From IMG/VR virus record IMGVR_UViG_3300030329_004008, positions 1 to 55,362 of that record: a DNA stretch of 55,362 bases; one strand, 5' to 3'. The DNA is from a virus. Taxonomy: Duplodnaviria > Caudoviricetes. A program made the translations under genes and the position numbers. A model generated the notes under the pieces. It made no database searches. It was not told the DNA's origin and worked only from the letters and a program-made list of their open reading frames with translations. Numbering within the stretch: position 1 is the first letter of the stretch; the number at the start of each line of letters is the position of its first letter. Positions 37,325 to 55,362 of this stretch are shown piece by piece.

Positions 37325-37676
37325 ATATCAACAAGGTGATGTGGTGCTTTATAAAGTATCTGAAGAGGATTTCGATAAAGCAAGGTTATATCATAGAGAT
37401 AAAACTCATCATAGAAGAGCCGCTCTTGCATATGGTGAAGAAACTGGTCATTGTCATGCTATTTATATGAAAGATATGCTGGATAATGCCGAAGTAACAT
37501 TATGCAAATCACAGACCTGGTCTAGAGATAATGAAGGCTTAATTGTACATAACAAACCTGTCCAGTTAAAGCATGAAGAGCATAACACTATAACATTAGA
37601 GCCTGGATACTATCTTCAACGAATTGTTAAGGAATATGATCATATTTCAGGCATAACCAGAGGAGTGATAGATTAA
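37308..37676 (+). CDS. His-rich conserved protein (QGDV / GExTGHxH family)
   Basis: YQQGDVVL, LAYGEETGHCH, LKHEEHNTITLEPGYY, KEYD. Confidence 0.75.
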   Translation: MNIQGKYQQGDVVLYKVSEEDFDKARLYHRDKTHHRRAALAYGEETGHCHAIYMKDMLDNAEVTLCKSQTWSRDNEGLIVHNKPVQLKHEEHNTITLEPGYYLQRIVKEYDHISGITRGVID

Positions 37677-38221
37677 TGGCAAAACTAACAAGTCAACAAC
37701 GTGATTATTTTACAAAACGTATTAACGATCAATTCGCAACACACCTTGGACCACTTGAAAAGAATGCTGCATTAAAGAAAGCTGATTTTGTCAACGAACA
37801 GTTCGATATCTTCGTGGAAAATCTTGGTATAAAGAAAAACCTGGAAGATCTGCAAGAAGCATTAATGCATATCCAAACAGCAAGACAAGCAGTTGCAAAC
37901 ATAATGAGTAATCTATGCAAACAGTATGATATTAAAAATTCATCATATGGAAGTGATAGGTATGAATGGAATTGGTCTGACTATAGAGACGACATGATTG
38001 AAGTTAAAAATAAGCTAATGGAAATGTGCAGGAAGGAATGTGAAGAAGCATTCAAGCAGTTTCCTGAAGGTGTTGAGATTGAGAAGCTTAAATCTAAGAA
38101 GCGTGAAGCATTAGATTATATCATGGGTTATGACCAGTCTAAAGAACTTCTTGATGGCTTATCTGTGGTATTAACAGGTAGTGGAGTTGCAATGCTAGAA
38201 GAATATAAGGAGGCTAAATGA
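37676..38221 (+). CDS. Hypothetical helical protein, 181 aa
   Basis: TAATG coupling. Confidence 0.75.
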   Translation: MAKLTSQQRDYFTKRINDQFATHLGPLEKNAALKKADFVNEQFDIFVENLGIKKNLEDLQEALMHIQTARQAVANIMSNLCKQYDIKNSSYGSDRYEWNWSDYRDDMIEVKNKLMEMCRKECEEAFKQFPEGVEIEKLKSKKREALDYIMGYDQSKELLDGLSVVLTGSGVAMLEEYKEAK

Positions 38222-38469
38222 AGATAGAATGGAATTATGATGATGTGGAGCAAGATATAGTATCAGTTTATCTGAAGAAACATTGCATCGGATATTTTAA
38301 ACTTACAGATGATAATTTTAGAATAATAACAGATGGAATGAATACACCAGAGATTAGTATGATCGTTTTAAGTCAGATCGTAAGTGAGTATCCTGATGCT
38401 ATTAAGACTGCTGGTAAATACATGCTATCAGCAGAAAATGACTTTGTCGAAGAGGGTACAATGCAGTAA
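38218..38469 (+). CDS. Hypothetical protein
   Basis: AGGAGG RBS; ATGA coupling. Confidence 0.7.
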   Translation: MKIEWNYDDVEQDIVSVYLKKHCIGYFKLTDDNFRIITDGMNTPEISMIVLSQIVSEYPDAIKTAGKYMLSAENDFVEEGTMQ

Positions 38470-38483
38470 ATTTACCCTATCCA

Positions 38484-38666
38484 ATGGAACTAGATGTATT
38501 AAACTTTATAATCGAGACGTACGAAGATACGATTGATCGCCTTGTCACTATAGGAGTCGGTAATGAAACCGAATTTGGCAATATTGTCACAGACAAGATG
38601 ATGAATACTATTATCGACCGTATGAATACTCTCAAGATTAGAAGAATGCATCTCCTCGATTACTAA
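38484..38666 (+). CDS. Hypothetical protein
   Basis: Fills the gap; no clear RBS. Confidence 0.55.
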   Translation: MELDVLNFIIETYEDTIDRLVTIGVGNETEFGNIVTDKMMNTIIDRMNTLKIRRMHLLDY

Positions 38667-38681
38667 ACCTAAGGAATAAAT

Positions 38682-39452
38682 ATGAAAACTCTTTATCTCG
38701 ATTTCGAGAACGGCTACAAGTCCCTCGGAAGTAAAGAAGACATCTCTAATATTTTTGGATATCCAATGCTTCAGTATGAAAATTGGAATGATTTCAAAGT
38801 ACTGCTTGGTAAGATATTTGACTATAAAGATATTGAAGAGGTTGTCAAAGTAGGTGAACTAGAAATACCCCAAAGATATAAAAAGTGGGTACGCAGAGAC
38901 GGAGTAGATATAGACTGTATAGTCTTAGATACTGTCACTGAACTAGTTAAGAAATACCAAAGAGCTCTGGCAGGACCTGCTAAGAAGCTAAAATTACAAC
39001 AATGGGGCGAAATGAAAGCTGAATTAGATGCATTCTTTTCCCTATTAAATGCAATCCCTATCTCAATGATCTGTAATGTACACGGCAAACTCAAGGAAGA
39101 TAATGATGAAGGCGTGTTAAAGGTAATGCCAAATATTGAAGGCAGTACCAAAGATGATCTAGGTAAGTGGTTTGACTTTGTATTATACACTAAAGTTGTT
39201 AAAGACGAGAAAGGAAATCGTCATTACAAGTGGGTAACAGCTCGTGATGAGAAATATTGTCACGCCAAGGACAGAAGTCAATCATTACCAGAAGAGATGG
39301 AACAAGATTACAGTGTTATAACTAACATTGTAAAAGACAAAGGCTGGGATGGAGCTAAGATATTAATCATAGGAGATCCTGGCAGTGGAAAAACCTTAAG
39401 CTTAAGAACAATAAACAAAGGAGTAAATAATGCTAAAACTGGATCTAAGTAA
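38682..39452 (+). CDS. AAA_24/Sak4-like ATPase (recombinase-like), circularly permuted
   Basis: LYLDFENG, Walker B IVLDTVTEL, QWG, WFDFVLY, AKDRS; Walker A KILIIGDPGSGKT at the C-terminus. Confidence 0.85.
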   Translation: MKTLYLDFENGYKSLGSKEDISNIFGYPMLQYENWNDFKVLLGKIFDYKDIEEVVKVGELEIPQRYKKWVRRDGVDIDCIVLDTVTELVKKYQRALAGPAKKLKLQQWGEMKAELDAFFSLLNAIPISMICNVHGKLKEDNDEGVLKVMPNIEGSTKDDLGKWFDFVLYTKVVKDEKGNRHYKWVTARDEKYCHAKDRSQSLPEEMEQDYSVITNIVKDKGWDGAKILIIGDPGSGKTLSLRTINKGVNNAKTGSK

Positions 39453-39921
39453 GAAAGGTACAGCAGTCTTCCCAGAAGGCTGGGCAGAAGTTGTTATAAA
39501 TGATGCTGTAGATGGTGACTATAACGGAAATCGTTATATTGATCTATTCTTTAAAGATATGCCAGATACATTGAAATGTAGAATATGGTCAGCAAAGAAC
39601 ACAAAAACAGGTGAGGAATTTGGTATTGCCAATTTATTTCACCATGCGTGGGCTGGAATAAAGGTAGACGAAGCCACTAATACTGCGACTATAGATGATA
39701 ATGCACGTCATCTAAAGGGTAAAACTGTAAATGTATTCTTCTATAAAAATGAAGATGAATTTACTGATGCAGTAGGTCGTATCGCTCCAGTAGAAAGTGA
39801 GAATTTTACAGAAACTGATGTAAAAGCTCTTAAATCTAGTGTAGAAAGATACCACAAAAGACGTCACACTACAACAACTAGTACAAATGGGACTACCGAG
39901 ACAGCAGCAGTGCCATTTTAA
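39430..39921 (+). CDS. Putative single-stranded DNA-binding protein (DUF669-like)
   Basis: FPEGWAEVVI...LKGKTVNV; flexible tail ending VPF; follows the Sak4-like gene. Confidence 0.65.
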   Translation: MLKLDLSKKGTAVFPEGWAEVVINDAVDGDYNGNRYIDLFFKDMPDTLKCRIWSAKNTKTGEEFGIANLFHHAWAGIKVDEATNTATIDDNARHLKGKTVNVFFYKNEDEFTDAVGRIAPVESENFTETDVKALKSSVERYHKRRHTTTTSTNGTTETAAVPF

Positions 39922-40003: not shown

Positions 40004-40405
40004 ATGCCAAAGAAAGTAAAAGAAATAATGCCTACAGTTAAATCCTTAATTGAAGAAGATCCTTCACTTGCTGATAATAATCCTAGGTTAATAGCTAATT
40101 TATGGTATCAACGATTGAAAGAAATGGGAGTTGTTGAGACTTATCCAGATACTAAATCAATACTTAGCTTTATAGTAAGCGGATTACCTAGTGCCGAAAG
40201 TATAACTAGGGCATCCAGAAAGCTTCAGATGGATAATCCTGAGTTACAGGGTAAGGAATGGAAGAAGAGGCAAGCTTACTCTAAAACTTACAGGAAGAAT
40301 ATCAATAAAATAGTACCTAAACCTTGTAAGGAAAGTACCAATAAGATAACAATGCATCCTGATTATGTAGCTCTTGTAGAAGATGAATTATTGGAGAAGC
40401 CATGA
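40004..40405 (+). CDS. Conserved phage protein (ESITRASRKLQ motif)
   Basis: AAGGAG RBS; motif recurrent in phage hypothetical proteins. Confidence 0.7.
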   Translation: MPKKVKEIMPTVKSLIEEDPSLADNNPRLIANLWYQRLKEMGVVETYPDTKSILSFIVSGLPSAESITRASRKLQMDNPELQGKEWKKRQAYSKTYRKNINKIVPKPCKESTNKITMHPDYVALVEDELLEKP

Positions 40406-42195
40406 TAAAGGAAATGGCATTTAGCTTATCTAATAGATTCAATTTTGTCGAATCATCACAAGTGCCTCAGTGGTATGGAACTAACAAAGATACTTTCATG
40501 AGTCTGTATGACTATGATGAATATGTGAAGAGCTTTGTTAAATCTAATAAGAAGCTATCTGGATTTGATGGGAAGATCTATATCCCTGCTGAATTCCTCC
40601 TTGATATTGATGGTACGGATGTCGATGATGCAAGGCAGAAAACTATCGGTCTAACATTAGCTTTGCATGACTTAATGATACCTTATAATGTTTATTTCTC
40701 TGGAACTGGATTCCATCTTGGAATACCTCAGGAAGCATTTTTATGGCAAGGTGCTAGAGACTTGCACCTGAAAGTAAAAGATGCATTAACAGAAAAAGGA
40801 ATCTTCGAGTTTGCTGATCCATCAGTAACAGATAAAACACGTATTATCAGACTGTTAAATACTAGAAATAGTAAATCCAATCTATATAAAGTGCATATTA
40901 CACAGCAGGAATTGCATTTGCATCCTGAAGAAATAATCCAACTAGCTAAGAAGCCAAGAGAGATTGAGGTAAAAATATTAGAATGCAATCCAGTATTTGA
41001 TGTCACTATACGTAAAAAAGAAGCTATTAAAATACAATTGAAAAAGCCTTTACAGGGTGAGCAACCTGATTTGCATCAATATCCATGTATTCAAGCAATG
41101 ATGGGTAATGTTAATCCTGGATCTAGGCATGCTGTAGCTTTAAGGATCTCAGCGCATTTAAGATGGAGATACCCTAAGCCTATTGTAGATATTGTAATGG
41201 ATCATTGGAGAAAGACTGTTGATAAAGATGGTGATTTTCCTGCAAAAGAAATGGACAGATTGGTAGATAGTACCTATAATGGTCATGGCGGTCAAGGAAA
41301 TCGTTACGGATGTAATGATGCTATCATGGATAAATATTGCCAATCAACATGCAAGCTATTCAAAGCAAAAAAGAATCAGAATGCATTAGACTCAACTGCT
41401 ATGGAAAAGCTACTAATGGAATTCATTCAATCAGATATAGAACCTATTGATATAGGAGCTCTATATGGAAAGAAATTTCCTATCTATCCAGGAGAGGTGG
41501 TAATAGTTCAAGGTCCACCTAAGTCTATGAAAACCATGCTGTTACAGAACTGGCTTAATGGATTAAAGAAAGAAACATACTTCTTAGAGATGGAAATGTC
41601 TCCTCGTCAAATGATGTTAAGATTTGCTATGATGGAAACTGGAATGTCAGAAGAAGAGGTTACAGATTCCTATAGACAAGGTGTTAGCATGAATGATAAA
41701 TTTAAATGGCTTACAATTGATTTCAATCCTTGTAGATCATTTGAACTAAGTAAGAGGATAGATATGCAGCCTACCAAGCCCGAAATAGTTGTAGTAGACC
41801 ATATGGGCTTATTTCATTCAGCGCATAAAGATAACAATATGAAAGTGGAAGAAGCTTCTCAAGCGTTAATGGAGCTTGCAATACAAAAGAATCTTGTTGT
41901 ATTTGCTGTATCAGAAATAGGTAAAGAATCCTTTAGGGAAGGCCAGAATATTGCATCAACTAGAGGTTCATTCCGTGTTGCATATAATGCAAATAAGATA
42001 ATAGGTGTAACTGGACGAAAGAATGAAGATGGATTGCTTAAGCATGTAGATGTAATGACTATAGCTAATCGAGAAAGAGAATCTCTAAATATGAGGTTTG
42101 ATGTTGATAATGTAATACTGAAACCATCAAAAGAAAAGATCACTAAGCCAACAAATAACCAAAGGAGAGTAATAAATGCAGAGATCGCTAGCTGA
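40402..42195 (+). CDS. AEP primase(-polymerase) fused to PriCT/Cys cluster and a RecA-fold (DnaB-like) helicase
   Basis: LLDID, FSGTGFHL, YPCI...RHAVAL, GC...YC..TC; GPPKSMKT, LEMEMS, VVVDH, RGS. Confidence 0.85.
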   Translation: MIKEMAFSLSNRFNFVESSQVPQWYGTNKDTFMSLYDYDEYVKSFVKSNKKLSGFDGKIYIPAEFLLDIDGTDVDDARQKTIGLTLALHDLMIPYNVYFSGTGFHLGIPQEAFLWQGARDLHLKVKDALTEKGIFEFADPSVTDKTRIIRLLNTRNSKSNLYKVHITQQELHLHPEEIIQLAKKPREIEVKILECNPVFDVTIRKKEAIKIQLKKPLQGEQPDLHQYPCIQAMMGNVNPGSRHAVALRISAHLRWRYPKPIVDIVMDHWRKTVDKDGDFPAKEMDRLVDSTYNGHGGQGNRYGCNDAIMDKYCQSTCKLFKAKKNQNALDSTAMEKLLMEFIQSDIEPIDIGALYGKKFPIYPGEVVIVQGPPKSMKTMLLQNWLNGLKKETYFLEMEMSPRQMMLRFAMMETGMSEEEVTDSYRQGVSMNDKFKWLTIDFNPCRSFELSKRIDMQPTKPEIVVVDHMGLFHSAHKDNNMKVEEASQALMELAIQKNLVVFAVSEIGKESFREGQNIASTRGSFRVAYNANKIIGVTGRKNEDGLLKHVDVMTIANRERESLNMRFDVDNVILKPSKEKITKPTNNQRRVINAEIAS

Positions 42196-42667
42196 TATTA
42201 GCAGAGACCTACTTATAGCTAAGACAGAATATGAAATCTTTAAAGAAGAAGATTTACAGAAACGTATTGATGAACTTAGGGATGAGCAGGCAAAGAAGGA
42301 AGATGGGATATATTTCTTCTATCAAGACTTTGATAAGGAAATAGAAATATTTGACCATCAAATAAAGAAAGCGCAAAGATACGTAAAGTTCCTGAAAAAT
42401 GAGCAAGAACGTATTAAGGGATATGTAGTAAGTCAATTCCAGCTTACTAATAAGTTACCTAAACACAGTGCTTTAAACCCTTTAAAGGTACGAGAATCTC
42501 AAGGAGCTGTAGATATAATTGATGAATCTAAGATCCCTGAGCAATATTGGGTTGAAGTAATCACTAAAAAGCTTGATAAGAAACGTATACTTAAAGAGCT
42601 AAAAAGTGGCAATGAAATCACTGGAGTCAGACTAATAAAGAAAGACTTCGTAACAGGACTTAAATAG
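42176..42667 (+). CDS. Siphovirus Gp157-like protein
   Basis: N-terminal coiled coil; VDIIDESKIPEQY...KLDKKRILKELKSGNEITGV. Confidence 0.8.
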   Translation: MQRSLADISRDLLIAKTEYEIFKEEDLQKRIDELRDEQAKKEDGIYFFYQDFDKEIEIFDHQIKKAQRYVKFLKNEQERIKGYVVSQFQLTNKLPKHSALNPLKVRESQGAVDIIDESKIPEQYWVEVITKKLDKKRILKELKSGNEITGVRLIKKDFVTGLK

Positions 42668-44796: not shown

Positions 44797-45025
44797 TGGA
44801 TGGCTCAATAAGAATGAGAAATCTAATGGCCAGAATAATCTCCCAATGTTTACAGGAGACATAAAGTTTAGCGAAGACATACTCGCTGGAGATAAGGTAA
44901 ACATAGCAATGTGGCGTAAGGTTAAATTCGGTAAAGAATCATTTAGCCTTGCCGTTAGCATTAACACAGACAGACCAAAAGATACAGAGGATATGAAGAA
45001 GGATGCCAAGTCCGAAATCTTCTAA
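44774..45025 (+). CDS. DUF736-like small beta protein
   Basis: GNGWLNKN...PMFTGDI...IAMWRK...FSLAV. Confidence 0.55.
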   Translation: MSWKKLGNGWLNKNEKSNGQNNLPMFTGDIKFSEDILAGDKVNIAMWRKVKFGKESFSLAVSINTDRPKDTEDMKKDAKSEIF

Positions 45026-45350
45026 AGCAAAAGGTCGAAGACTCCAAAACCTGGTACGAGATAAGCTACGGGCTGCATTTGACTCTTTGCTCGAAGAGGA
45101 TGATATAAAGTCGCAAATAATGGGCATGACAGGGGAGGATATCGTTCTCTCGCCTGCAGCTCGTAAGCTTATTCCTTACAGTATTGAATGTAAAAATGTA
45201 GAAAGACTTAATGTCTGGAAATGTATTAAACAAGCTGAAGATAATGTGCAGAAAGATTGCAATCCAGCATTAGTAATTAAAAGAAACCAACAATCACCCT
45301 ATATATTAATACCACTTGACGAATGGATATCTATAATCCAAAAAAGATAG
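45003..45350 (+). CDS. Holliday junction resolvase (PD-(D/E)xK nuclease)
   Basis: SKAKGRRLQNLVRD...EDI...SIECKN...PALVIKRN. Confidence 0.85.
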   Translation: MPSPKSSKAKGRRLQNLVRDKLRAAFDSLLEEDDIKSQIMGMTGEDIVLSPAARKLIPYSIECKNVERLNVWKCIKQAEDNVQKDCNPALVIKRNQQSPYILIPLDEWISIIQKR

Positions 45351-45496
45351 GAAGAAAAGCTACATCAATTAATGATCAATTCTGGAAAGAATCTTATTTC
45401 ATTCATTCCACGCTTGAAGAAGCATTAGAGCAGGAAGTTGATTCAGAAATAATCAGGATATTAAAAAATCCAAATTTGTTTGTAGCTACTAGTTAG
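45323..45496 (+). CDS. Small hypothetical protein, 57 aa (last gene of the plus arm)
   Basis: Manually translated (MDIYNPKKIGRK...); its stop overlaps the convergent gene by 8 nt. Confidence 0.45.
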   Translation: MDIYNPKKIGRKATSINDQFWKESYFIHSTLEEALEQEVDSEIIRILKNPNLFVATS

Positions 45497-48400
45497 CTAT
45501 CTTTTTCATAAGAGCTGGACTTTCTTTAATGATTGCTCCAGTAACAGGCTCTGGCCATAAATAACCAAGCATACCTTTAGCTTTATATTTAGCTGCATCT
45601 TCCTCATTACCTGCAATTAATGCAAATAATGCGAATGCATCGTATAAGAAGCCTGCCCCTACGCCTGCACCAGGTAGAGACCTTATGTGATAAGCTATTA
45701 ATCTCTCGAGATCTTTAGCGTCATCCCATGGATCATCTATATCATCTGACATGGCGATTGCGGCTAGTATTGGTAGCCATATTAATGCAGCTATGGGAGA
45801 TCCTGCGCCTCCTAGATTGCGAGCACCTAAGAGATAAAATGCACTTCTTGCTACATCAGGTAATACTGGTAATACGTACATTGATTGCATTAATCCTTCT
45901 ATTAAGAAGTGAGTAAGAAACCATCTCTTCAGTCTAAGGACCTCAGGTTTTGAATTTGCTAAGACGTCATTGTTTCTCCATATATCTCTAAACATAAGCT
46001 TTATGGTTGCAGACAGTTTATTATCTGCATTAACTGCGTCTAAAGCATTCTTCCATAATTCTACATCAGATGCTGCTTTTTGTGACTTCCATACAGAAAA
46101 CTGACTAAATAAAGATCCCAATGCACCTCTATATGCCTCACCTACACCTTGTCTACTCATGCTAAAATCAAATTGCATATTTGTAGCAAGCCTACCATAG
46201 TAAATGGCCAAATCTCTATCTCGGCCAGTCAATTCCCACATATTACCAGAAGGAATTTCTCCAGCTTTTTGTGCATTTTGCACTCCTAGTATAAAAGAAA
46301 TGGAACGTATATGCTGTTCCATATCGGACATAATTCCTGCCCTACCAAAATGCTTCCTTATATTCCTTACAATATCTTCCCCTCGCTTAGCAAGAATTAA
46401 CATTGAAGGGTTCTCTCTCACCATATCTCTCAATATAGCTTCGTTGTTGATAGCAAAGTTTGTAATTTTATTCGTTATTCTTTGAATCTTTTCCTGCCTT
46501 AATTTGGCATCGAATTGTGAAGCCTCTTCCTGATCTAATACGTTTTCCCACTTTAGCTTTACTCCCCACAGCTTTGTAAGATTCTTCTTCAATATATTTT
46601 CTGCATTTTTAATGCTAGTACCCTTATTCCGTCTATCAAAATAAGATAGATATTCAGCAACCATCTTGTTGATATTATCTCTCTCCATTTCCATTGCCTC
46701 AAGTTCCTTGACAATAGAGTTAGTAAAGAACTCATTAAATAAAGTCACCCCAGACTCTTCAAGCATAGGCGAGAGTGCATCCTTATTTTGGGTATAATAT
46801 TTTGATGCATCTAAAAATGATCCTAGACCTGACTTAACTACTTTCTCAATATTTCCAAAGGCTTGCCTTATAGCGCTAGTAGGTCCAGATAACATTAAAT
46901 TGAGAAATTTTCTATAAATCTTTAAGCCTCTTACCATTCGAGGGTTTATATTTTGATCAGAGAGGTCCATTCCAAACATTAATGATCGTGCATCCTTCCT
47001 TCCCATTGTAGCTTTATATAAAGAGGAGAATGCATCTGATACTCCTGGCATATCTGTCATAGACATGGCCGTTATTAATGCGGCAGTAAGATTGTTTCTC
47101 TCTATGTTACGAGCTGTATGCTCTAAATAAGATCTAAATACACCGCGATCTGTACGAGACTTAAGAACATCAAAGGCATTACTAACATGCTTGAAGTGCT
47201 TAGCTCTAGTACGAGTGACCATTTTGTCTCCATCTAATGCATCTTCATCTGTCTCTAATAACTCTTCTTTCATTGCTTTTTGGTTAGCAATAGACGTCTT
47301 TAATGCATCTTCCTGAGCCTCTAATTTCACTAGTTCATCACCTGTAACAGCTGTTTTCGCATCTTGGATTTGGCTTAAGGCGTATTCCATAGAATCAATA
47401 GCGTCTTCTATAATGAAAACAAACTTTTCTGGCATATAGATATAAGGAAAGTAGAACTTCTTATATGTAGCCATATCTCCCATCATTGGCTTAAATGGTT
47501 GCTCTAACGACCACTTAGTAAATTCATTTTCTAACATTGCTAGCCTGGATATATCTTCATGAGACCATATTATATTCCCCTGCTCATCATGTAGCTTTCC
47601 ATCTACTATAGCCCTTTTCAATTGTTCAACGCTTTTCCCTGGGAAATGAGTCCTTAATGCATTTAATACCCTTAGGAAGCTCTCTTCAGATTGAGATTTA
47701 AAATGCTCAAATGCCTGATCCATAATAACTCTAGCTTCTTGTACGTATTGATCTAATTGTGCGAGCATTGTACTTGTAAGTGGAGGCATATTCATTATCA
47801 TATCTAGGGTATCATATCTCAATCTACCCTTTTGATCTGTCATTTTATTATCTTTTACAGTACCGTGAATATTAGGATCATATCTAAGAGGTACTGGATT
47901 CTGCCATCCGAAAATAACATCTCCACTATCATAACTTTCCGAAGTAGGAGCCCACCATTGATTAATATACCATCCAGCCCCATGCTCATACACTAATCGT
48001 GAAGGCCTACCAGGTTTCTCTTTAGTCATTTTAGCAGCTCTTTTATCATCTACATATTCAACACGACCATGCATCATCCATGTAAATAATTCTACAATTC
48101 TCTGAGCTCCCTGTTCCTTTGTCCTACCACCATAAAATCCTGCAGCTTCCCAAGCGCTTCTTAAATCTCCATCTATATCTGCATGATCATACACCCCTTC
48201 TACTGAATTCATTATACGAGTCATTCCAATGCTCTCATCAGTAGGGTTCATAAATTTATGTATATGTCCAGCTATATTATCAGCAAAGTCCTGTGTAGCT
48301 TTCCATACCTTGTGATATGCACCAGAGTTTTCAGTAAATCTAAGCTTTCTAGTAACACCCCATCCAAGTCTAACCCCTCTATACCATAAATTATCCCATC

Positions 48401-48881
48401 TAGATCCATCAGCACTAGTCCATGCCTCTGTAAATCTTAGATATCTTTTTAAAGTTCCAATAGGTAGCTTATATAGTAATAGCTTTCTCTGTTGAGTATC
48501 TTTATTGATCGCTATTACTTTCTTCTTGAGCATAGGGGCTAAGCTAATAGCATCAGCATGTAATTCTTCGACAATTGGCAGTGCTAAATGCTGGTTAGCT
48601 TCGATAAGCATCCTTATCTTATTAGCTATTTGTTCACGCTCTGGAAGAGATCCCATAATCTTATTTATAGCTTTAGCACGAGATTCTTTATTTCCAAAAG
48701 ATAGCTTACTTCCAATTTTAATGATGGCTTTTGCTATCTTACTATTAGCATATCTAGGATGCTCTGGATCAGCTTCTATAGAGCTATCTACATATTGTTC
48801 AGTTTGTAATTCAAAGCTCTTAGCTTCTGTCTCTATAGCGTTTAATGCTCTAGTGGCTATGTTGCATTTATCCATTAACAA
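45489..48881 (-). CDS. Large putative internal virion protein, 1130 aa
   Basis: Coupled to the RNAP-like gene; LFSQFSVW motif and hydrophobic C-terminal segments like large ejection proteins. Confidence 0.7.
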   Translation of the reverse strand: MLMDKCNIATRALNAIETEAKSFELQTEQYVDSSIEADPEHPRYANSKIAKAIIKIGSKLSFGNKESRAKAINKIMGSLPEREQIANKIRMLIEANQHLALPIVEELHADAISLAPMLKKKVIAINKDTQQRKLLLYKLPIGTLKRYLRFTEAWTSADGSRWDNLWYRGVRLGWGVTRKLRFTENSGAYHKVWKATQDFADNIAGHIHKFMNPTDESIGMTRIMNSVEGVYDHADIDGDLRSAWEAAGFYGGRTKEQGAQRIVELFTWMMHGRVEYVDDKRAAKMTKEKPGRPSRLVYEHGAGWYINQWWAPTSESYDSGDVIFGWQNPVPLRYDPNIHGTVKDNKMTDQKGRLRYDTLDMIMNMPPLTSTMLAQLDQYVQEARVIMDQAFEHFKSQSEESFLRVLNALRTHFPGKSVEQLKRAIVDGKLHDEQGNIIWSHEDISRLAMLENEFTKWSLEQPFKPMMGDMATYKKFYFPYIYMPEKFVFIIEDAIDSMEYALSQIQDAKTAVTGDELVKLEAQEDALKTSIANQKAMKEELLETDEDALDGDKMVTRTRAKHFKHVSNAFDVLKSRTDRGVFRSYLEHTARNIERNNLTAALITAMSMTDMPGVSDAFSSLYKATMGRKDARSLMFGMDLSDQNINPRMVRGLKIYRKFLNLMLSGPTSAIRQAFGNIEKVVKSGLGSFLDASKYYTQNKDALSPMLEESGVTLFNEFFTNSIVKELEAMEMERDNINKMVAEYLSYFDRRNKGTSIKNAENILKKNLTKLWGVKLKWENVLDQEEASQFDAKLRQEKIQRITNKITNFAINNEAILRDMVRENPSMLILAKRGEDIVRNIRKHFGRAGIMSDMEQHIRSISFILGVQNAQKAGEIPSGNMWELTGRDRDLAIYYGRLATNMQFDFSMSRQGVGEAYRGALGSLFSQFSVWKSQKAASDVELWKNALDAVNADNKLSATIKLMFRDIWRNNDVLANSKPEVLRLKRWFLTHFLIEGLMQSMYVLPVLPDVARSAFYLLGARNLGGAGSPIAALIWLPILAAIAMSDDIDDPWDDAKDLERLIAYHIRSLPGAGVGAGFLYDAFALFALIAGNEEDAAKYKAKGMLGYLWPEPVTGAIIKESPALMKKIAN

Positions 48882-51800
48882 TTCCTTTTAAGGATTCTTG
48901 AAAGAGGATCATATGCAACTCTACGAGCTGATTCACTACGTCCTTCAATATCCTTAATCTTTTTATTATATAATTTTAAATACTTGCTCATTAATACAGG
49001 ATCTAACACTGTAAGGTCTGGCTCTGAAGATACTGGAGGCAGATTATTGCGTTGTACTGTGTACATTAGCTTGCCTTGTTGATCCAATTGGGCGAACCCT
49101 CTTAAGAATGCAATAGTTGCTGAGAATTGTCCTAAAGGTCCCATCTCCATATAAGCAGCTCCCCACCAAGAGGTAAATCTAATGAGATCTGGATTATAAT
49201 CCCAAGATACAGCTTCATTATTTTCAGCTATACGCTCCATTATAGATGCATATCCTTCTCCAGTTAGATTCTCACCTTCTCCCTTCGAGTTCCACATTTG
49301 ATTAGCATAAGATGTGCCATCTGCAATACTTTGCTCTAGATCTTTATCAGTAATCTCTTCTCCAGTCAATTCTCTATGATATATGCGCTCATTATCCATT
49401 GCTTCTTGCATTAAAGTATCTATATCTTCTTCAAGATCTGCCATAGATTGCAAGTGCACTGTATTATACACATCCTGCTCATACTCAACTGGGGAGATTT
49501 TATTAGGCTCAGCTAAAGATGCGATACCAGTTCTCTCATCTCCATACCACTGTCTAGCAAATTCTACTGTCACCTCTTCTAATGGAGATAATGTATCATT
49601 AAATTCTACTGAGCTTACTAGACCACTTAGAGCTTCATTTCCATCATACTTATCCATTAAATATCCTTGACGATCATTAATATAGTCTAATAGTTTCTTG
49701 CTTTCCTTTAATAATGATGTAACTGAATGACTATGATCAAAGCCTCTACCTCTACGGATAGTTCTAGTTAATGCACTTATTGATATAATGGGCTTTATTA
49801 AGTCCATATATTCAGTATTATTTTCATTTATTTCAGATTTCCAGTTACCATTTTCATCTGCGATATAGAACAACCTAGATATAAGTTTATCTCTGGAATA
49901 GTTCCATTCAGATAATAACAAATGCTTATGGTTATCTACCGCAGCCTGCAACCAGATTCGTAACTGCTCTTCCATTGTCATTGAATCGTTCATCTCAGGA
50001 AACAATACTTGATCCAGGAGCTTATGAACCTTAATCTGATTGCCATCATTAAGTTTAATTCCATTGAAATTGTGGTTTAGCTGTCCTAATACATTTTGTA
50101 ATGCAGCTATTTGCCCTACAGATCTTTTCCCTACCTGGAACATTTGTGTTAACAATCTAACATTTTCTGCCTTAGAAAGGTCTATCTCTCTAGCCATGCT
50201 TGGAAGTGAAATAGCTTTCATTCTATTAGCAGCCTCTGCATCTAGTAAAAACTGCTGAATACTAGTAGCTAGATCATCGGGAATAAATTCAACCTGTATT
50301 GCATCACCGTCATAGTCACCTTCAAGTAACTTAATAGAGACATTATCTGAAACAATTGCTTGCCCTCCTCTATTATGCAATGCCTTAACTCTTAATACTC
50401 TCGCACCTCCTACGTATGGAACTGGCGACCTGTGTATCAATGTCAAAATCTTTGTGTTCTCAAGCCACTTGTTTATTGCATTTAGACTAAGCTTTTTAGC
50501 CTCATTAACAGTTCCACCATTCTCTTTTGCATAAGCAACATATACTTGATGAGCATTTGTAGCAGCTAATGTGATTTCATCATCATTATGTGTATTGAAA
50601 TAATCTGGAGCAAGATCTACATATGTACCTTTACCATTATTAAGAGATAATGCAGGGGTTATGACCTGTGTTCTTAAAATCTTATTTAACATACCCATAG
50701 CATCAGCATGCATTCCTAATCCTAGCTTAAACTTCTCTAATAATGCAGTGGTCATTGCATGTGGAGAATCTGAATGCACACTCTGTGCAAACTTGAGTAA
50801 GGTAGATGCATTAAATGTATTAGATCCAGTCAGTGTAAATATGCTCTTTAATCGCTCCTTAATTCTTGGCATCATAAAGCCTTTCAAATCATTTACCAGG
50901 TCTGTATCATGAACATAGTTAGTCCATTGCATTCCGAATGTTGCGGTCTTCTTTGGCTCGTGATACTTTATAAGCCCTATTTCCTCACCTGCAATATCAA
51001 TAATCTCTCCAGATTTATAGTTCGATATCTTAGCCTCATCATCTGTCATAAGTATATCAACTTCATTCCTGCCTTCTGCAGTTACTTGATATATCCTGCC
51101 ATTGTCGTCAACTTCTGCTAATAGCTGCCTATTACCATCTTTCCCTATCTTGATAATTTTCATTCCAGCTTCAGGTTCAAACATTTCATGCTTAACAGCA
51201 AGAGATAGATCTGCCTTCCATATAACTGTCTTGAATAGCCTCATTAAAGGATTGCTTCCAAATGCTTCGTGCATATCATTCGTAAATGTACTGCTAATAA
51301 TGGATGCACCATCAGTACGATTCTTATTGCCCATACCAGCTATTATATCCATCATATTTCCTTCATTGCCATTACGGTCAACAAATACTATCTGATTTCT
51401 TTCAGCTTCATTAGTAGCTATTTGCACAGCTTTTGCACCTCTCATAAGAGGGGAAGTGAATACTGGCGTAGTAGCAATCTTGATACGTCTAAATAATTCT
51501 GCACCATTATTAATCATATTTGCTGGCATCAATCTTCTCATCATTTCATATCTAGCAATCTCTCCAGCTAGCCATTTCTGTGAGTATCTTGCCTTGCTTC
51601 TTACATGGTTACCATCCTTGTCAATTCTGTAACCCATAAAGTTAAGCATCTGATCTTCTGTTATAAAGCCACCTACCACTTGAGCTTTCCAATATGCTTT
51701 AATTTGATTTTCATTTCTAGCGATAGACATATGGCGATCTAATATAGGAGCAAACATCATATGCCCAGAATCTCCTCTGGTAGACATAAGAGCTAATCCG

Positions 51801-54800
51801 TGAATTACACCTTGTCTGTCTTCATAAGTAAAGTTATTTAATGCATACACTTGCAACTGCTTAATCTGATCATCAGACAGAACATCTACAAACTTATCGG
51901 TAAATGCCTTGCCATATTTTGTCACTATTTCATATATATCTTTTAGGTTCAAGAATACAGGCTTTTGCATTCCCCACTTCTTATCAGCTTTGGTAGCTTC
52001 ATATATTAAATTCTGATCTCTAGTAGAGTTTGACTTTTCTGTAAAATTACTTTTATTCCTTTTTATTACAAGCTCTCCAGAAGTTCGGTATTCTAAGTTC
52101 CTTCTCCTAGGAGTGATACCAGATGCAGGATTTACAGTAACAGTAGAAGCAGTACGCACAAAGAACTGTTTAATCCTTCTTCTTTCTATAGATCCTGAAG
52201 GAAAATCTGAGTACCTATACCCTGTAGCTACTTGCAAAGGACCTTCACCCCATGCGTCAAAAGCTTCTTGAGGAGTAAGGGTTGGTTGATTTAAGAATTG
52301 CAATACAGAACTCAGTAATGATATCATCTTATTGTGAGGTATATTAATTCCCAGTTCCCTCATGAAGGTATATTCAGTACTAACTCCATGCTTAGCTCTT
52401 ATATCATTATCATTTCCAGGGATAAAGCTTAAATCTTCTTCAACAGCAGCATATATCTCATCAAATGCATCATTGAACTCTTCTCTTGTAGCATAAACAT
52501 CATTCATCGCATGCATTCTTTTTACTATCTTGCCAATCTGAACATGCTGATTAGCCCATACATCAAAAATAGCAGCCATATCAAATGGTATCTCTTCAGC
52601 TAATTTTGCTATATATTTTTTGATATTAAAAGACTTGCCCAGCTTTGTCTGCATTGCATTTAATGCATTGTCAAATATTCTTAAAGCTTGATTCCCAGCC
52701 TCAGTTCCAGGCTCTATCTGTTGATAGTCTATCTGTCCAAGAGACATCTCCTCTGCTGGAATTGTATAATGCATTCTCTGAGGACCTTTGTCTGTTGGGA
52801 TGAAGCGATTGTAATCCCATATATCTTTAAATCTACTATAACTTAATTTAGCTCTAAATGGATCTTCATAATGAGCAAGCTGGACTTGATACCTATTTCC
52901 ATCAGAGCCTACAAAGTCATGCATAATTGGATTCTCTCTTCCCTGAGCCTCTGGGCCAGAAAAGAAGTCCACTAACATAGCTTCGGTGCCAGTCTTAATT
53001 TCTGTCTCTGATATAATATTACCAGCATCATTCATCTTATAATCAAGCTTATAAGTGCCAACAATCTCGTTCTTTGCATTTCTTACATTGTAAGATATAA
53101 TTTTCTTCCCATCTTTTCTGCGCTTAATGTCAGATACTTTATGCCCAGATGGAGGTACAAGGAATGTATCTGTACTAGCTCCTCCTGGTAAGCTAAATGA
53201 ATAAGCCTCGATAGCTCCTTTGAAATGCTTTTTAATTAAGGATATTGCTGATTCTCTAGTTCCTATATTGACAAAATCAAGATCATGCACTACAGAATCC
53301 TTAGGTCTATAGACTGAGCCTTGGGTAGAATAAGCAATACTTCCTGTCAATATAATATCATCTGCAGTACCGATCTTAGTCATAATATCTTTTGCGATCG
53401 GATTCATATCAAAAGCTTCCTGAAAATCTATTAGAACATATCCAGGTTTCTTAGTAGTTGCTACGAAACTTTCATGCTTAAAGGTATTGTCTACAATCTT
53501 GTTAATAGCGGGCTGTATAACGCTCCAATTTGCTCCAGTAAGACTATCTAATACCTTCTGAACAAATACCTTAATACGTTTTAATAAGCTATCGCTAACG
53601 TTTAATTCCTTAGCAAGTCTTTCACTAAAGCCAGACTGTAATAGGTCTTGGAATATTTCCTTAGTAGCTAATCTTAATGCAATCCTACCATTGATATCTG
53701 GATTGTCTTTATATATCTGCTCAATTGCATTCTTATACCTATCAGTGTCCTTTACCGCTTCTCTTATATCGTAAAAATCTTGTGAATAACTAAGCATTTC
53801 TGACAATGCATCTGCCATCACCTTAGATACGTGATTTATATCATGCCTATTTAGATCAACTCTCTTGTTAGCTAGATTTACAAACAGCTCCTGTACGTCA
53901 TTGACTTCAAATCCATAATCAATTAAGAAATTTAACAATCTACTTTGAGGAGAATCATCTTCAAAGCGAGTTAATGGAGTAAATGAAAACTCAAATCCCA
54001 TCTTCTTCCAGAAGTCAATAGAATCTGGATGAGCTATAATATTTATTATCTGCTCACCCCTACCTACCATTACCTCCTTGATTGATTCAAAAAATCTAGT
54101 CCCCAAGCCTTTGCCTCTAAGGTTTTCTGGCACTACAATATTACCAATACGTGACTTGTCAGTGGGATGAGGAGTCCATTTAAGTCCATATTTTTTAACA
54201 AGTTGGTTTAATAGTATCGTAGAAGCAGCTTCATGTTGAGCTCCTTTACGCTTATAAGCCTCTACTGCAATCTCTTCACCAACTTGAAATAGCTGATCAC
54301 CTTCTACAAATTTCTGTGCAATATATTGAGAGGGCCTTCCAAATACTTTCTTGACATGAGCCCAGAACTTGCGAAGGAAATTTTTAACTCTAGCTTTTAA
54401 GCTGCCAGGAGCGTCCTTTAATGCATTAGCATAGTATTCTCCAACATATTGAGTTAACTGCTCCTCAGTCTTCATATCCTGTAATGCTTTTTCAATAAGA
54501 GGATGACCTCTCAATGCTTTAACTAGTATATGAAAATACTCGTGCGGAGCTGTATCTACAGTAGCCTTTCCTTTAGCCCACTCTGCAATAGTATTGAATG
54601 CACGCCCTGCCTGCTCTTCTCCTGAGAGATGGTCAATTATTTGATCTACCTCTTTCCCTGCTATGTTAGGGAAGTCTTCTCTTAGCTTAGCTTTAACCCT
54701 ATCAGCCCATTCCTGTGCATCATCCGCTAAAGGAAGTTTAGTTTCTTTAATGGCTTGATAATCAATGCCCCAATCATGTTTATCCTTCAAGTCTTCAAGG

Positions 54801-55362
54801 TATGCTCTATTTTTTGCAGAACTAATTGACTCTTCCATTAAAGGGGTTGGATTATCTCTAATAAGGTCTAGAACATCTTCTTTAGTGTTTAGTAAGGAAA
54901 CATCCAACCCTCTACCTTGAGCAATTTCTTTTAAATCTTTAAGAGATCTATGCTGATTAGTCTCGATCCAATTCTCTTGACGTCTCTTTCTTTCTTGCCA
55001 TATAGCAGGATGCACACCTTCTGGCGCACCTAATGCATCAATTCTATCAGCTTCTGCCCTTTCAGCATCCATCTTGGCTGCTTCAGCTTCTTCCTCTTGC
55101 TGTGGAGCGGTAAGCTCTGTCTCTTCTCCAAAGATTCTAACCTGACCAGAAACATTAGGCTCTGTGTCTTCATATCCAGGAACCCCAAAGGCTTCTTGCT
55201 CATCTTTTTTCTGAAGCCTACGTACAAGGTCAGCCTTCCTTTCGCCCTTCTGCTGTTGAGGCATTTCACGAGTCTCTAGTAATGTATTCAGCTTTGGTAT
55301 AGTAAGCTTGTTATAATCTACAGGCTCTTCAGTTAGCTCGTCTGGATTTAAAAATCCTGGAG
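48875..55362 (-). CDS. C-terminal part of a giant polyvalent protein: HExxH peptidase + GNAT + Pol-beta NTase + two-barrel (RdRP/crAss vRNAP-like) RNA polymerase
   Basis: HEYFH 54530-54544; RGKGLG 54101-54118; TGS...HDLD ~53276-53347; RTDGASIIS ~51293-51319; HRSP 50423-50434; GDYDGD 50303-50320; AVDNHK ~49925-49942. The frame stays open to the window end. Confidence 0.85.
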   Translation of the reverse strand, partial: PGFLNPDELTEEPVDYNKLTIPKLNTLLETREMPQQQKGERKADLVRRLQKKDEQEAFGVPGYEDTEPNVSGQVRIFGEETELTAPQQEEEAEAAKMDAERAEADRIDALGAPEGVHPAIWQERKRRQENWIETNQHRSLKDLKEIAQGRGLDVSLLNTKEDVLDLIRDNPTPLMEESISSAKNRAYLEDLKDKHDWGIDYQAIKETKLPLADDAQEWADRVKAKLREDFPNIAGKEVDQIIDHLSGEEQAGRAFNTIAEWAKGKATVDTAPHEYFHILVKALRGHPLIEKALQDMKTEEQLTQYVGEYYANALKDAPGSLKARVKNFLRKFWAHVKKVFGRPSQYIAQKFVEGDQLFQVGEEIAVEAYKRKGAQHEAASTILLNQLVKKYGLKWTPHPTDKSRIGNIVVPENLRGKGLGTRFFESIKEVMVGRGEQIINIIAHPDSIDFWKKMGFEFSFTPLTRFEDDSPQSRLLNFLIDYGFEVNDVQELFVNLANKRVDLNRHDINHVSKVMADALSEMLSYSQDFYDIREAVKDTDRYKNAIEQIYKDNPDINGRIALRLATKEIFQDLLQSGFSERLAKELNVSDSLLKRIKVFVQKVLDSLTGANWSVIQPAINKIVDNTFKHESFVATTKKPGYVLIDFQEAFDMNPIAKDIMTKIGTADDIILTGSIAYSTQGSVYRPKDSVVHDLDFVNIGTRESAISLIKKHFKGAIEAYSFSLPGGASTDTFLVPPSGHKVSDIKRRKDGKKIISYNVRNAKNEIVGTYKLDYKMNDAGNIISETEIKTGTEAMLVDFFSGPEAQGRENPIMHDFVGSDGNRYQVQLAHYEDPFRAKLSYSRFKDIWDYNRFIPTDKGPQRMHYTIPAEEMSLGQIDYQQIEPGTEAGNQALRIFDNALNAMQTKLGKSFNIKKYIAKLAEEIPFDMAAIFDVWANQHVQIGKIVKRMHAMNDVYATREEFNDAFDEIYAAVEEDLSFIPGNDNDIRAKHGVSTEYTFMRELGINIPHNKMISLLSSVLQFLNQPTLTPQEAFDAWGEGPLQVATGYRYSDFPSGSIERRRIKQFFVRTASTVTVNPASGITPRRRNLEYRTSGELVIKRNKSNFTEKSNSTRDQNLIYEATKADKKWGMQKPVFLNLKDIYEIVTKYGKAFTDKFVDVLSDDQIKQLQVYALNNFTYEDRQGVIHGLALMSTRGDSGHMMFAPILDRHMSIARNENQIKAYWKAQVVGGFITEDQMLNFMGYRIDKDGNHVRSKARYSQKWLAGEIARYEMMRRLMPANMINNGAELFRRIKIATTPVFTSPLMRGAKAVQIATNEAERNQIVFVDRNGNEGNMMDIIAGMGNKNRTDGASIISSTFTNDMHEAFGSNPLMRLFKTVIWKADLSLAVKHEMFEPEAGMKIIKIGKDGNRQLLAEVDDNGRIYQVTAEGRNEVDILMTDDEAKISNYKSGEIIDIAGEEIGLIKYHEPKKTATFGMQWTNYVHDTDLVNDLKGFMMPRIKERLKSIFTLTGSNTFNASTLLKFAQSVHSDSPHAMTTALLEKFKLGLGMHADAMGMLNKILRTQVITPALSLNNGKGTYVDLAPDYFNTHNDDEITLAATNAHQVYVAYAKENGGTVNEAKKLSLNAINKWLENTKILTLIHRSPVPYVGGARVLRVKALHNRGGQAIVSDNVSIKLLEGDYDGDAIQVEFIPDDLATSIQQFLLDAEAANRMKAISLPSMAREIDLSKAENVRLLTQMFQVGKRSVGQIAALQNVLGQLNHNFNGIKLNDGNQIKVHKLLDQVLFPEMNDSMTMEEQLRIWLQAAVDNHKHLLLSEWNYSRDKLISRLFYIADENGNWKSEINENNTEYMDLIKPIISISALTRTIRRGRGFDHSHSVTSLLKESKKLLDYINDRQGYLMDKYDGNEALSGLVSSVEFNDTLSPLEEVTVEFARQWYGDERTGIASLAEPNKISPVEYEQDVYNTVHLQSMADLEEDIDTLMQEAMDNERIYHRELTGEEITDKDLEQSIADGTSYANQMWNSKGEGENLTGEGYASIMERIAENNEAVSWDYNPDLIRFTSWWGAAYMEMGPLGQFSATIAFLRGFAQLDQQGKLMYTVQRNNLPPVSSEPDLTVLDPVLMSKYLKLYNKKIKDIEGRSESARRVAYDPLSRILKRNC
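55236..55362 (+). repeat. Terminal direct repeat, copy 2
   Basis: Matches 1-127 with a single mismatch. Confidence 0.97.

Follow-up and report, generated by a model that had tools for sequence, protein, structure and literature searches.

A phage Sak4/AAA_24-like ATPase with its P-loop module behind the RecA core

Few proteins have been studied as thoroughly as the RecA-fold recombinases, whose motif order is treated as fixed. Can a natural member of this superfamily carry its nucleotide-binding loop at the other end of the chain? The question is raised by a single gene in a phage sequence of 55,362 bases (IMG/VR record IMGVR_UViG_3300030329_004008), which we analysed over its whole length and refer to as the window; it comprises the entire virus record, which CheckV rates as 100% complete. 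The phage is tailed: its minus strand encodes a large terminase, portal and head proteins and tail fibres, and its plus strand carries a replication and recombination block. Within this block lies a gene for a Sak4/AAA_24-like ATPase (Table 1). The protein opens with MKTLYLDFENG, continues through the Walker B strand CIVLDT and the motif HAKDRS, and only then reaches KILIIGDPGSGKT (residues 226–238), which holds the Walker A motif GDPGSGKT (G231–T238, nucleotides 39372–39395). Direct reading of the open reading frame (ORF) thus gives exactly the motif order that an earlier, sequence-only reading of the window had claimed. The LYLDFENG strand corresponds to the one that canonical proteins have after the P-loop helix; by analogy with RecA, its residue E9 is the candidate catalytic glutamate. 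H134, in a later core strand, is a candidate gamma-phosphate sensor.

Profile searches resolved the protein into two pieces in reversed order. Pfam AAA_24 matched it with 62.8 bits against a cut-off of 27, and residues 2–199 corresponded to positions 24–195 of the 195 in the profile. When the whole record was searched in six frames with the same profile, positions 24–195 fell at 38685–39278 (51.5 bits) and positions 2–24 at 39351–39419 (12.6 bits, E = 0.0036), in the same frame; the native chain is not collinear with the family, as the body of the profile precedes its beginning. No continuing match was found downstream of the gene in this six-frame search. The PHROG families agreed: Sak4-like phrog_124 matched residues 3–209 (4.5e-30), and positions 3–24 of phrog_2872, also Sak4-like, corresponded to residues 225–246. 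The reading frame is open for only 259 codons, three more upstream than the gene uses, so an N-terminal extension that could house a further P-loop module is impossible. The gene has its own ribosome-binding site, and the ORF upstream of it (60 amino acids, 38484–38666) is without a P-loop, both as had been noted from the sequence; this ORF is present in 1 of 43 related loci. The gene encodes a Sak4/AAA_24 RecA core in which the order of the elements is reversed, with the P-loop module after the core.

We examined this relationship by rotation. The window protein was scored, at each fifth circular rotation, against a hidden Markov model (HMM) of 23 short canonical relatives. In native order its best single-domain score was 133.7 bits, covering positions 39–226 of the 231 in the profile. 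The score peaked at rotation 222, which carries the last ~34 residues to the front: a single alignment of 154.7 bits then ran from profile position 16 to 226 and over residues 3–254. Rotations that cut the protein in its middle brought the score down to about 70 bits. After rotation the ATPase can be aligned with the canonical family over its full length, which it cannot in native order. The same treatment improved 50 of 65 permuted representatives (mean +13.6 bits, median +14.2 bits) and moved the median profile start from 75 to 17. The natural circular permutation that the sequence-only reading had proposed was borne out in this way, both by the reversed AAA_24 pieces in one frame and by the collinearity that rotation restores, and its suggestion that moving the C terminus to the front would improve the alignment proved correct.

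The permuted layout is widespread. A word-indexed search returned 194 homologues at E ≤ 1e-3, and the 120 listed among them are 222–259 amino acids long and 54–100% identical to the window protein. All 24 close homologues that we aligned begin at the LxxDxExG strand and end with GxPGSGKTxSxxT, and both the C-terminal GxPGSGKT and HAKDR are invariant among them. When 1.84 billion cluster representatives (50% identity) were searched exhaustively with a profile, 1,278 matched at E ≤ 1e-3, of which we classified the 150 listed: 66 are full-length permuted proteins with Walker A near the C terminus only, 46 are canonical with Walker A at residues 10–38, and 38 are fragments or unclassified. One protein, P0147, was classed by hand, the Walker-like match at its residue 21 being due to chance. 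Permuted homologues are therefore abundant, and canonical AAA_24 and Sak4 proteins do have strand, P-loop and helix first, as the sequence-only reading had stated. In an alignment of 78 permuted members, some as little as 21% identical to the window protein, D83, H134, G236 and K237 alone were invariant, and G231, G234, L228, L241 and T243 were at least 90% conserved, making the relocated P-loop and the Walker B aspartate the most strongly conserved part of the protein. Conservation of this degree goes far past what chance would give. In IMG/VR we found 43 loci with relatives of the ATPase gene, 42 of which have it intact, at about 244–256 amino acids and with a C-terminal P-loop. The permuted layout is old and selected.

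We next consider how such a chain may fold. AlphaFold2 with the 78-sequence alignment gave a mean predicted local distance difference test (pLDDT) score of 95.4 and a predicted template-modelling (pTM) score of 0.91; pLDDT was 98 over residues 221–240, and only the last six residues were uncertain. DSSP assigned a strand to residues 226–231 and a short helix to residues 239–243. On the strength of pLDDT, DSSP pairing and motif conservation, the C-terminal strand probably takes the place of the first strand in the sheet, beside the Walker B strand. The sequence-only reading had looked to AlphaFold for a C-terminal strand that completes the core sheet; what stands of this is a confidently predicted strand and P-loop within a compact single domain, and the exact position in the sheet is the part that we infer. 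With the 24-sequence alignment, pLDDT was 84.6 and confidence was low past residue 231. Both models contain a long two-stranded beta-hairpin at residues 46–71 (38817–38894), after the first helix block and ahead of the Walker B strand. It may be a clade-specific insertion, as only 166 of the 256 residues align to the nearest structure.

That structure was found with VIA-align. Foldseek returned nothing from the PDB at E ≤ 1e-3 for the model, as is to be expected when a sequential aligner is given a permuted fold, and an HMM search of PDB sequences gave only weak P-loop matches, to ClpX and midasin (E = 0.012–0.05). VIA-align over 48,161 representative chains ranked the cryo-electron microscopy structure of Sak4 of phage 52A (8rc5_1A) first, with Z = 12.6, a root-mean-square deviation of 3.0 and 166 aligned residues, ahead of the next match at 9.8; 8rc5 was again first among Foldseek candidates (Z = 12.4). 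Model residues 1–220 correspond to residues 49–258 of the chain, so that the alignment opens just behind the Walker A residues Lys41/Thr42, as the figure legend for PDB 8rc5 names them. The legend also gives an ATPgammaS site drawn with residues of two protomers, the neighbour contributing Lys229/Arg231/His232. By the offset that pairs model residue 220 with chain residue 258, K196 of HAKDRS would lie near Lys229. The next matches were RAD51 paralogues, RadA, RecA, RadB, FlaH and KaiC, each aligned from just past its own P-loop helix. RadB, RAD51D, XRCC2, RAD51C and RecA/RadA/Rad51 share the RecA-like core (Z = 8–10, 145–161 residues aligned) but differ in their canonical motif order, at 9–15% identity. 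In BFVD, the viral protein A0A516LUR7 matched the model end to end (55% identity, TM scores 0.88/0.90), and canonical AAA_24 phage proteins reached only 0.5–0.6.

The protein thus resembles Sak4/AAA_24 proteins (PF13479; HK620, PA73 and phage 52A Sak4) in passing the Pfam cut-off, in a core fold with Z = 12.4–12.6, in its Walker A, Walker B and AKDRS motifs, in a length of ~250 amino acids without extra domains, and in a neighbouring gene for a putative SSB (single-stranded DNA-binding protein) within a phage recombination module. It differs in having strand, P-loop and helix behind the core rather than ahead of it, and in the modelled hairpin. The strand that normally opens the protein, the P-loop with Walker A and the short helix are joined here behind the last core helix through a linker of five to six residues, leaving the chain to open at the strand with the acidic pair D7/E9. 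The C-terminal module would fold back into the centre of the sheet of its own chain and rebuild a normal ATP site from K237/T238, D83, E9 and H134, with K196/R198 supplied by the neighbouring subunit as in Sak4 filaments. The ATPase would partner the SSB-like protein encoded downstream, in a module with primase-helicase, Gam-like and RusA-like proteins. We regard the permutation as almost certainly real; that it is real, conserved and functional is highly probable, and an ATP site that works in cis is likely. For the prediction that the protein is an ATP-dependent single-strand annealing or recombination protein, the balance tips modestly in favour.

The downstream neighbour is part of this prediction. 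The SSB-like gene directly follows the ATPase gene in 41 of the 43 loci. In the window it starts 23 bases before the ATPase gene stops (overlap 39430–39452) and has AAAGGAG ahead of its start, an arrangement that suggests that translation of the two is coupled; most related loci instead have 5–60 bases between these genes. All 41 neighbours end in an aromatic residue or in PWD (for example, ...DMPF, ...DVPW or ...DDVF), mostly after acidic residues, and these tails (...AAVPF in the window) resemble the NDYPPF tail of the HK620 SSB. The expectation that an SSB-like gene follows was upheld in part, by position and tail, and only weakly by family searches, as described below. HK620 Sak4 is reported to be an ATP-dependent annealase that its cognate SSB stimulates through this C-terminal tail (PMC5928155), and ATP-dependent binding and annealing of single-stranded DNA are reported for HK620 Sak4 (PMC5928155) and for Healer Gp64 (PMC13687109). 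'Healer' is described there as a repair pair of a DUF669 single-stranded DNA-binding protein and a Sak4-like AAA protein (PMC13687109). Our locus is likewise a two-gene unit of a Sak4-like ATPase and a small neighbour, and an Atlas feature search gave a DUF669 lead for that neighbour (15% of one cluster with the domain, score 0.96); it differs from Healer in that the neighbour falls below every Pfam model and the ATPase is permuted. In the most divergent subfamily fetched (44% identity; L041:4001-4738 and L042:4001-4738), the ATPase itself ends in ...TLTVPF, which is like an SSB tail, and at neither locus did the region downstream yield a homologue of the SSB-like neighbour.

Could the layout be an artefact of assembly, of gene calling or of a frameshift, by which one gene's end has become fused to the beginning of a second Sak4 gene? 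The only thing found that might speak for this is one broken copy (L040:80-667), whose frame stops after 199 amino acids at ...HAKVKC, maybe through a frameshift or a sequencing error. Against it, the same layout recurs in the 42 intact loci, which are independent viral contigs, and in the 66 divergent representatives among the 150 listed, and nothing downstream continues the AAA_24 match. Within 600 nucleotides upstream of the gene there is no real Walker A motif at any of the 38 loci with enough sequence, the sole regular-expression match containing a stop. Metagenome contigs of three further runs (X7, X8 and X10) bridge the core, the P-loop and the next gene, covering 39170–39596, 39200–39572 and 39251–39800, and others cover 38431–39055, without joints or indels. 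The intact loci and the bridging contigs together exclude the misassembly that the sequence-only reading had named as a danger, and an artefact of any kind is vanishingly improbable. In three marine runs, contig depth rises 10–20 fold at 39167–39217, over an invariant GKWFDFVLYTK stretch; the loose contig ends flanking it belong to related phages, many of which co-occur in these samples. A real gene might still encode a degenerate, ATPase-dead RecA-core paralogue whose C-terminal P-loop is a functionless relic, and some Rad51 paralogues and PA73 Sak4 are reported to tolerate Walker A mutation (PMC2896510). Such a relic would have decayed, and instead G236 and K237 are among only four residues invariant in the 78 members, with G231, G234, L241 and T243 nearly so; we consider a relic very unlikely.

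If the P-loop is functional, it could serve in trans: in a domain swap, the C-terminal strand and P-loop would complete the fold of a neighbouring subunit, and ATP binding would be obligatorily tied to the formation of an oligomer or filament. RecA-family ATP sites lie at subunit interfaces, the ATPgammaS of phage 52A Sak4 is ringed by two protomers in the figure legend, and the relocated module sits at a chain end, the usual place of swaps. The AlphaFold2 monomer seats the module with high confidence in the absence of a partner, however, and only five residues, with conserved G221/W222, link helix 210–220 to strand 226–231, so that a swap appears improbable, if less so than a relic. A larger share of doubt falls on the activity. 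The protein may be a real permuted ATPase with a different part in replication, for example in loading a helicase or processing ends, rather than in annealing: most AAA_24 proteins are uncharacterised, the NCBIfam model TIGR01618 ('phage nucleotide-binding protein') gives the ATPase only 20 bits, and the gene lies two genes upstream of the primase-helicase. Both the nearest structure and the nearest named PHROG are Sak4, however, and the conserved SSB-like neighbour recalls the kind of pairing whose function has been shown with Sak4 and with the DUF669/AAA 'Healer' (PMC5928155, PMC13687109). We consider a different replication role unlikely, although it is the most serious of these alternatives.

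Several results weigh against the proposal of a permuted, ATP-using annealing protein that folds in cis. Rotation brought no gain in 15 of the 65 permuted representatives, and the reciprocal rotation, of canonical proteins against a permuted HMM, had a weak effect (median +0.5 bits, 18 of 23 improved). In the shallow 24-sequence model, pLDDT was 65 over residues 231–240 and 48 over residues 241–250, and the sheet position of strand 226–231 was deduced from confidence values and DSSP. The SSB assignment is weak: phrog_378 matched two of the nine neighbour proteins tested (that of the window and one of eight homologues) and Pfam none of the nine. A Walker A mutant of PA73 Sak4 is reported to keep its in vivo recombineering activity (PMC2896510), which means that annealing in the Sak4 family does not necessarily depend on ATP use. 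Finally, no duplicated or fused intermediate was found among proteins of 455–2000 amino acids, in a search that is weak as evidence, or among the 150 listed representatives.

To ask how often the permutation arose, we built a quick IQ-TREE tree for 67 permuted and 46 canonical rows, using just the core that both share and leaving out the P-loop segments. The permuted label changes twice on this tree, strongly supported branches force only one change, and none of 500 shuffles gave a number as low. In the free quick tree, no single branch separated the permuted set from all other rows; a tree in which the permuted rows were held together lay 35 log-likelihood units above it (approximately unbiased test, p-AU = 0.879). 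A single origin is the best-supported history of the permuted layout. At the junction of permuted proteins, a canonical-like C terminus (...PDFxxIYxKI) runs into a canonical-like N-terminal strand (LKVLVYGxxGxGKT), which is what a tandem duplication, a fusion and the trimming of both ends would leave. Most likely, a canonical gene was duplicated in tandem and fused in frame, and both outer ends were then lost. It seems to have been a single event, at the root of a large clade of phages that are uncultured and mostly marine.

The close subfamily comes from marine metagenomes. No prokaryotic (prophage) copy was found when one genome per prokaryotic species was scanned with a profile of the close-family alignment. 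Among 50,697 GenBank phage records, searched with two permuted protein queries and the window DNA, there was no permuted member, in a comparison that may omit records near the window; the matches were canonical relatives only, in Moraxella and Oceanotoga phages.

Table 1 Features of the permuted ATPase gene and its recombination module in the window.
Feature	Position	Strand	Evidence
Permuted Sak4/AAA_24-like RecA-core ATPase gene, 256 amino acids	38682..39452	+	ORF; Pfam AAA_24; phrog_124; AlphaFold2; 8rc5
Shine-Dalgarno-like AAGGA, six bases ahead of ATG	38671..38675	+	Read from sequence
LYLDFENG, residues 4–11, strand with acidic pair D7/E9	38691..38714	+	L4, D7, E9 and G11 invariant in 24/24; strand E3–7 in both AlphaFold2 models
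Walker B strand CIVLDT, residues 79–84	38916..38933	+	D83 invariant in 78/78; model strand E79–83
Core strand, residues 128–140, with N132 and H134	39063..39101	+	H134 invariant in 78/78
HAKDRS, residues 194–199, end of AAA_24 core	39261..39278	+	Invariant in 24/24
Relocated strand, P-loop and short helix, residues 224–246	39351..39419	+	AAA_24 profile 2–24; phrog_2872 3–24; G236/K237 78/78; pLDDT 98 (221–240)
Putative single-strand DNA-binding partner, 163 amino acids, ends ...AAVPF	39430..39921	+	phrog_378 at 4.3e-5
Primase/DnaB-like helicase fusion	40402..42195	+	phrog_16345 5.6e-20, phrog_19 6.4e-15; in 43/43 loci
Mu Gam-like DNA-end protection protein	42176..42667	+	phrog_253 4.6e-24; 29/43 loci, some cut by locus end
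RusA-like Holliday junction resolvase	45003..45350	+	phrog_244 8.5e-19

The window holds other genes besides. Upstream of the ATPase gene, a plus-strand gene at 37676–38221 encodes a 181-amino-acid protein with weak family matches only, and weak homologues (20–28% identity) occupy the same place in 14 of the 43 loci. Two very large ORFs lie on the minus strand, at 45489–48881 (1,130 amino acids) and 48875–55264 (2,129 amino acids); the former had no PHROG match at E ≤ 1e-3.

Natural permutants are not foreign to P-loop nucleoside triphosphatases. The circularly permuted GTPases RsgA/YjeQ and YlqF/RbgA keep their nucleotide site intact and define whole clades; they differ from the permuted ATPase in belonging to the TRAFAC class, in their cut point and motif order, and in serving ribosome assembly rather than recombination. 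In the publications found, 'circularly permuted' concerns methylases, genomes or GTPases. A full-text literature search, with subscription journals and supplements outside its scope, brought up no permuted ATPase of the Sak4, AAA_24 or RecA-fold kind, and in papers on Sak4 (PMC5928155, PMC11846896, PMC2896510 and PMC13687109) 'permut' is absent or otherwise meant. The permuted Sak4 layout does not seem to have been described, in line with what the sequence-only reading had supposed.

What would such a protein mean? We give an even chance to the full statement that the RecA/Rad51 superfamily here shows its first recognised natural circular permutation, that this permutation defines a large and old clade, so far of uncultured phages only, and that its termini may couple ATP binding to filaments. 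If it is true, the two key catalytic residues lie one near each terminus, the acidic one at position 9 and the Walker A lysine 20 residues before the C terminus. Because the new termini flank the nucleotide site, a free C-terminal tail, or a P-loop module exchanged by neighbouring subunits, could link ATP binding to the assembly of filaments by a route that canonical recombinases lack. A permutant selected across a whole clade would show that the strand/P-loop/helix unit can pass from one end of the chain to the other with the site kept, which bears on the assembly of P-loop enzymes from beta-loop-alpha fragments and offers a natural test case for the folding and assembly of RecA filaments. 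Order-dependent annotation and sequential structure aligners under-call permuted proteins, and a clade such as this one therefore goes unnoticed in viral metagenomes. The permuted ATPases would also add a distinct type of recombinase to the candidate proteins for recombineering.
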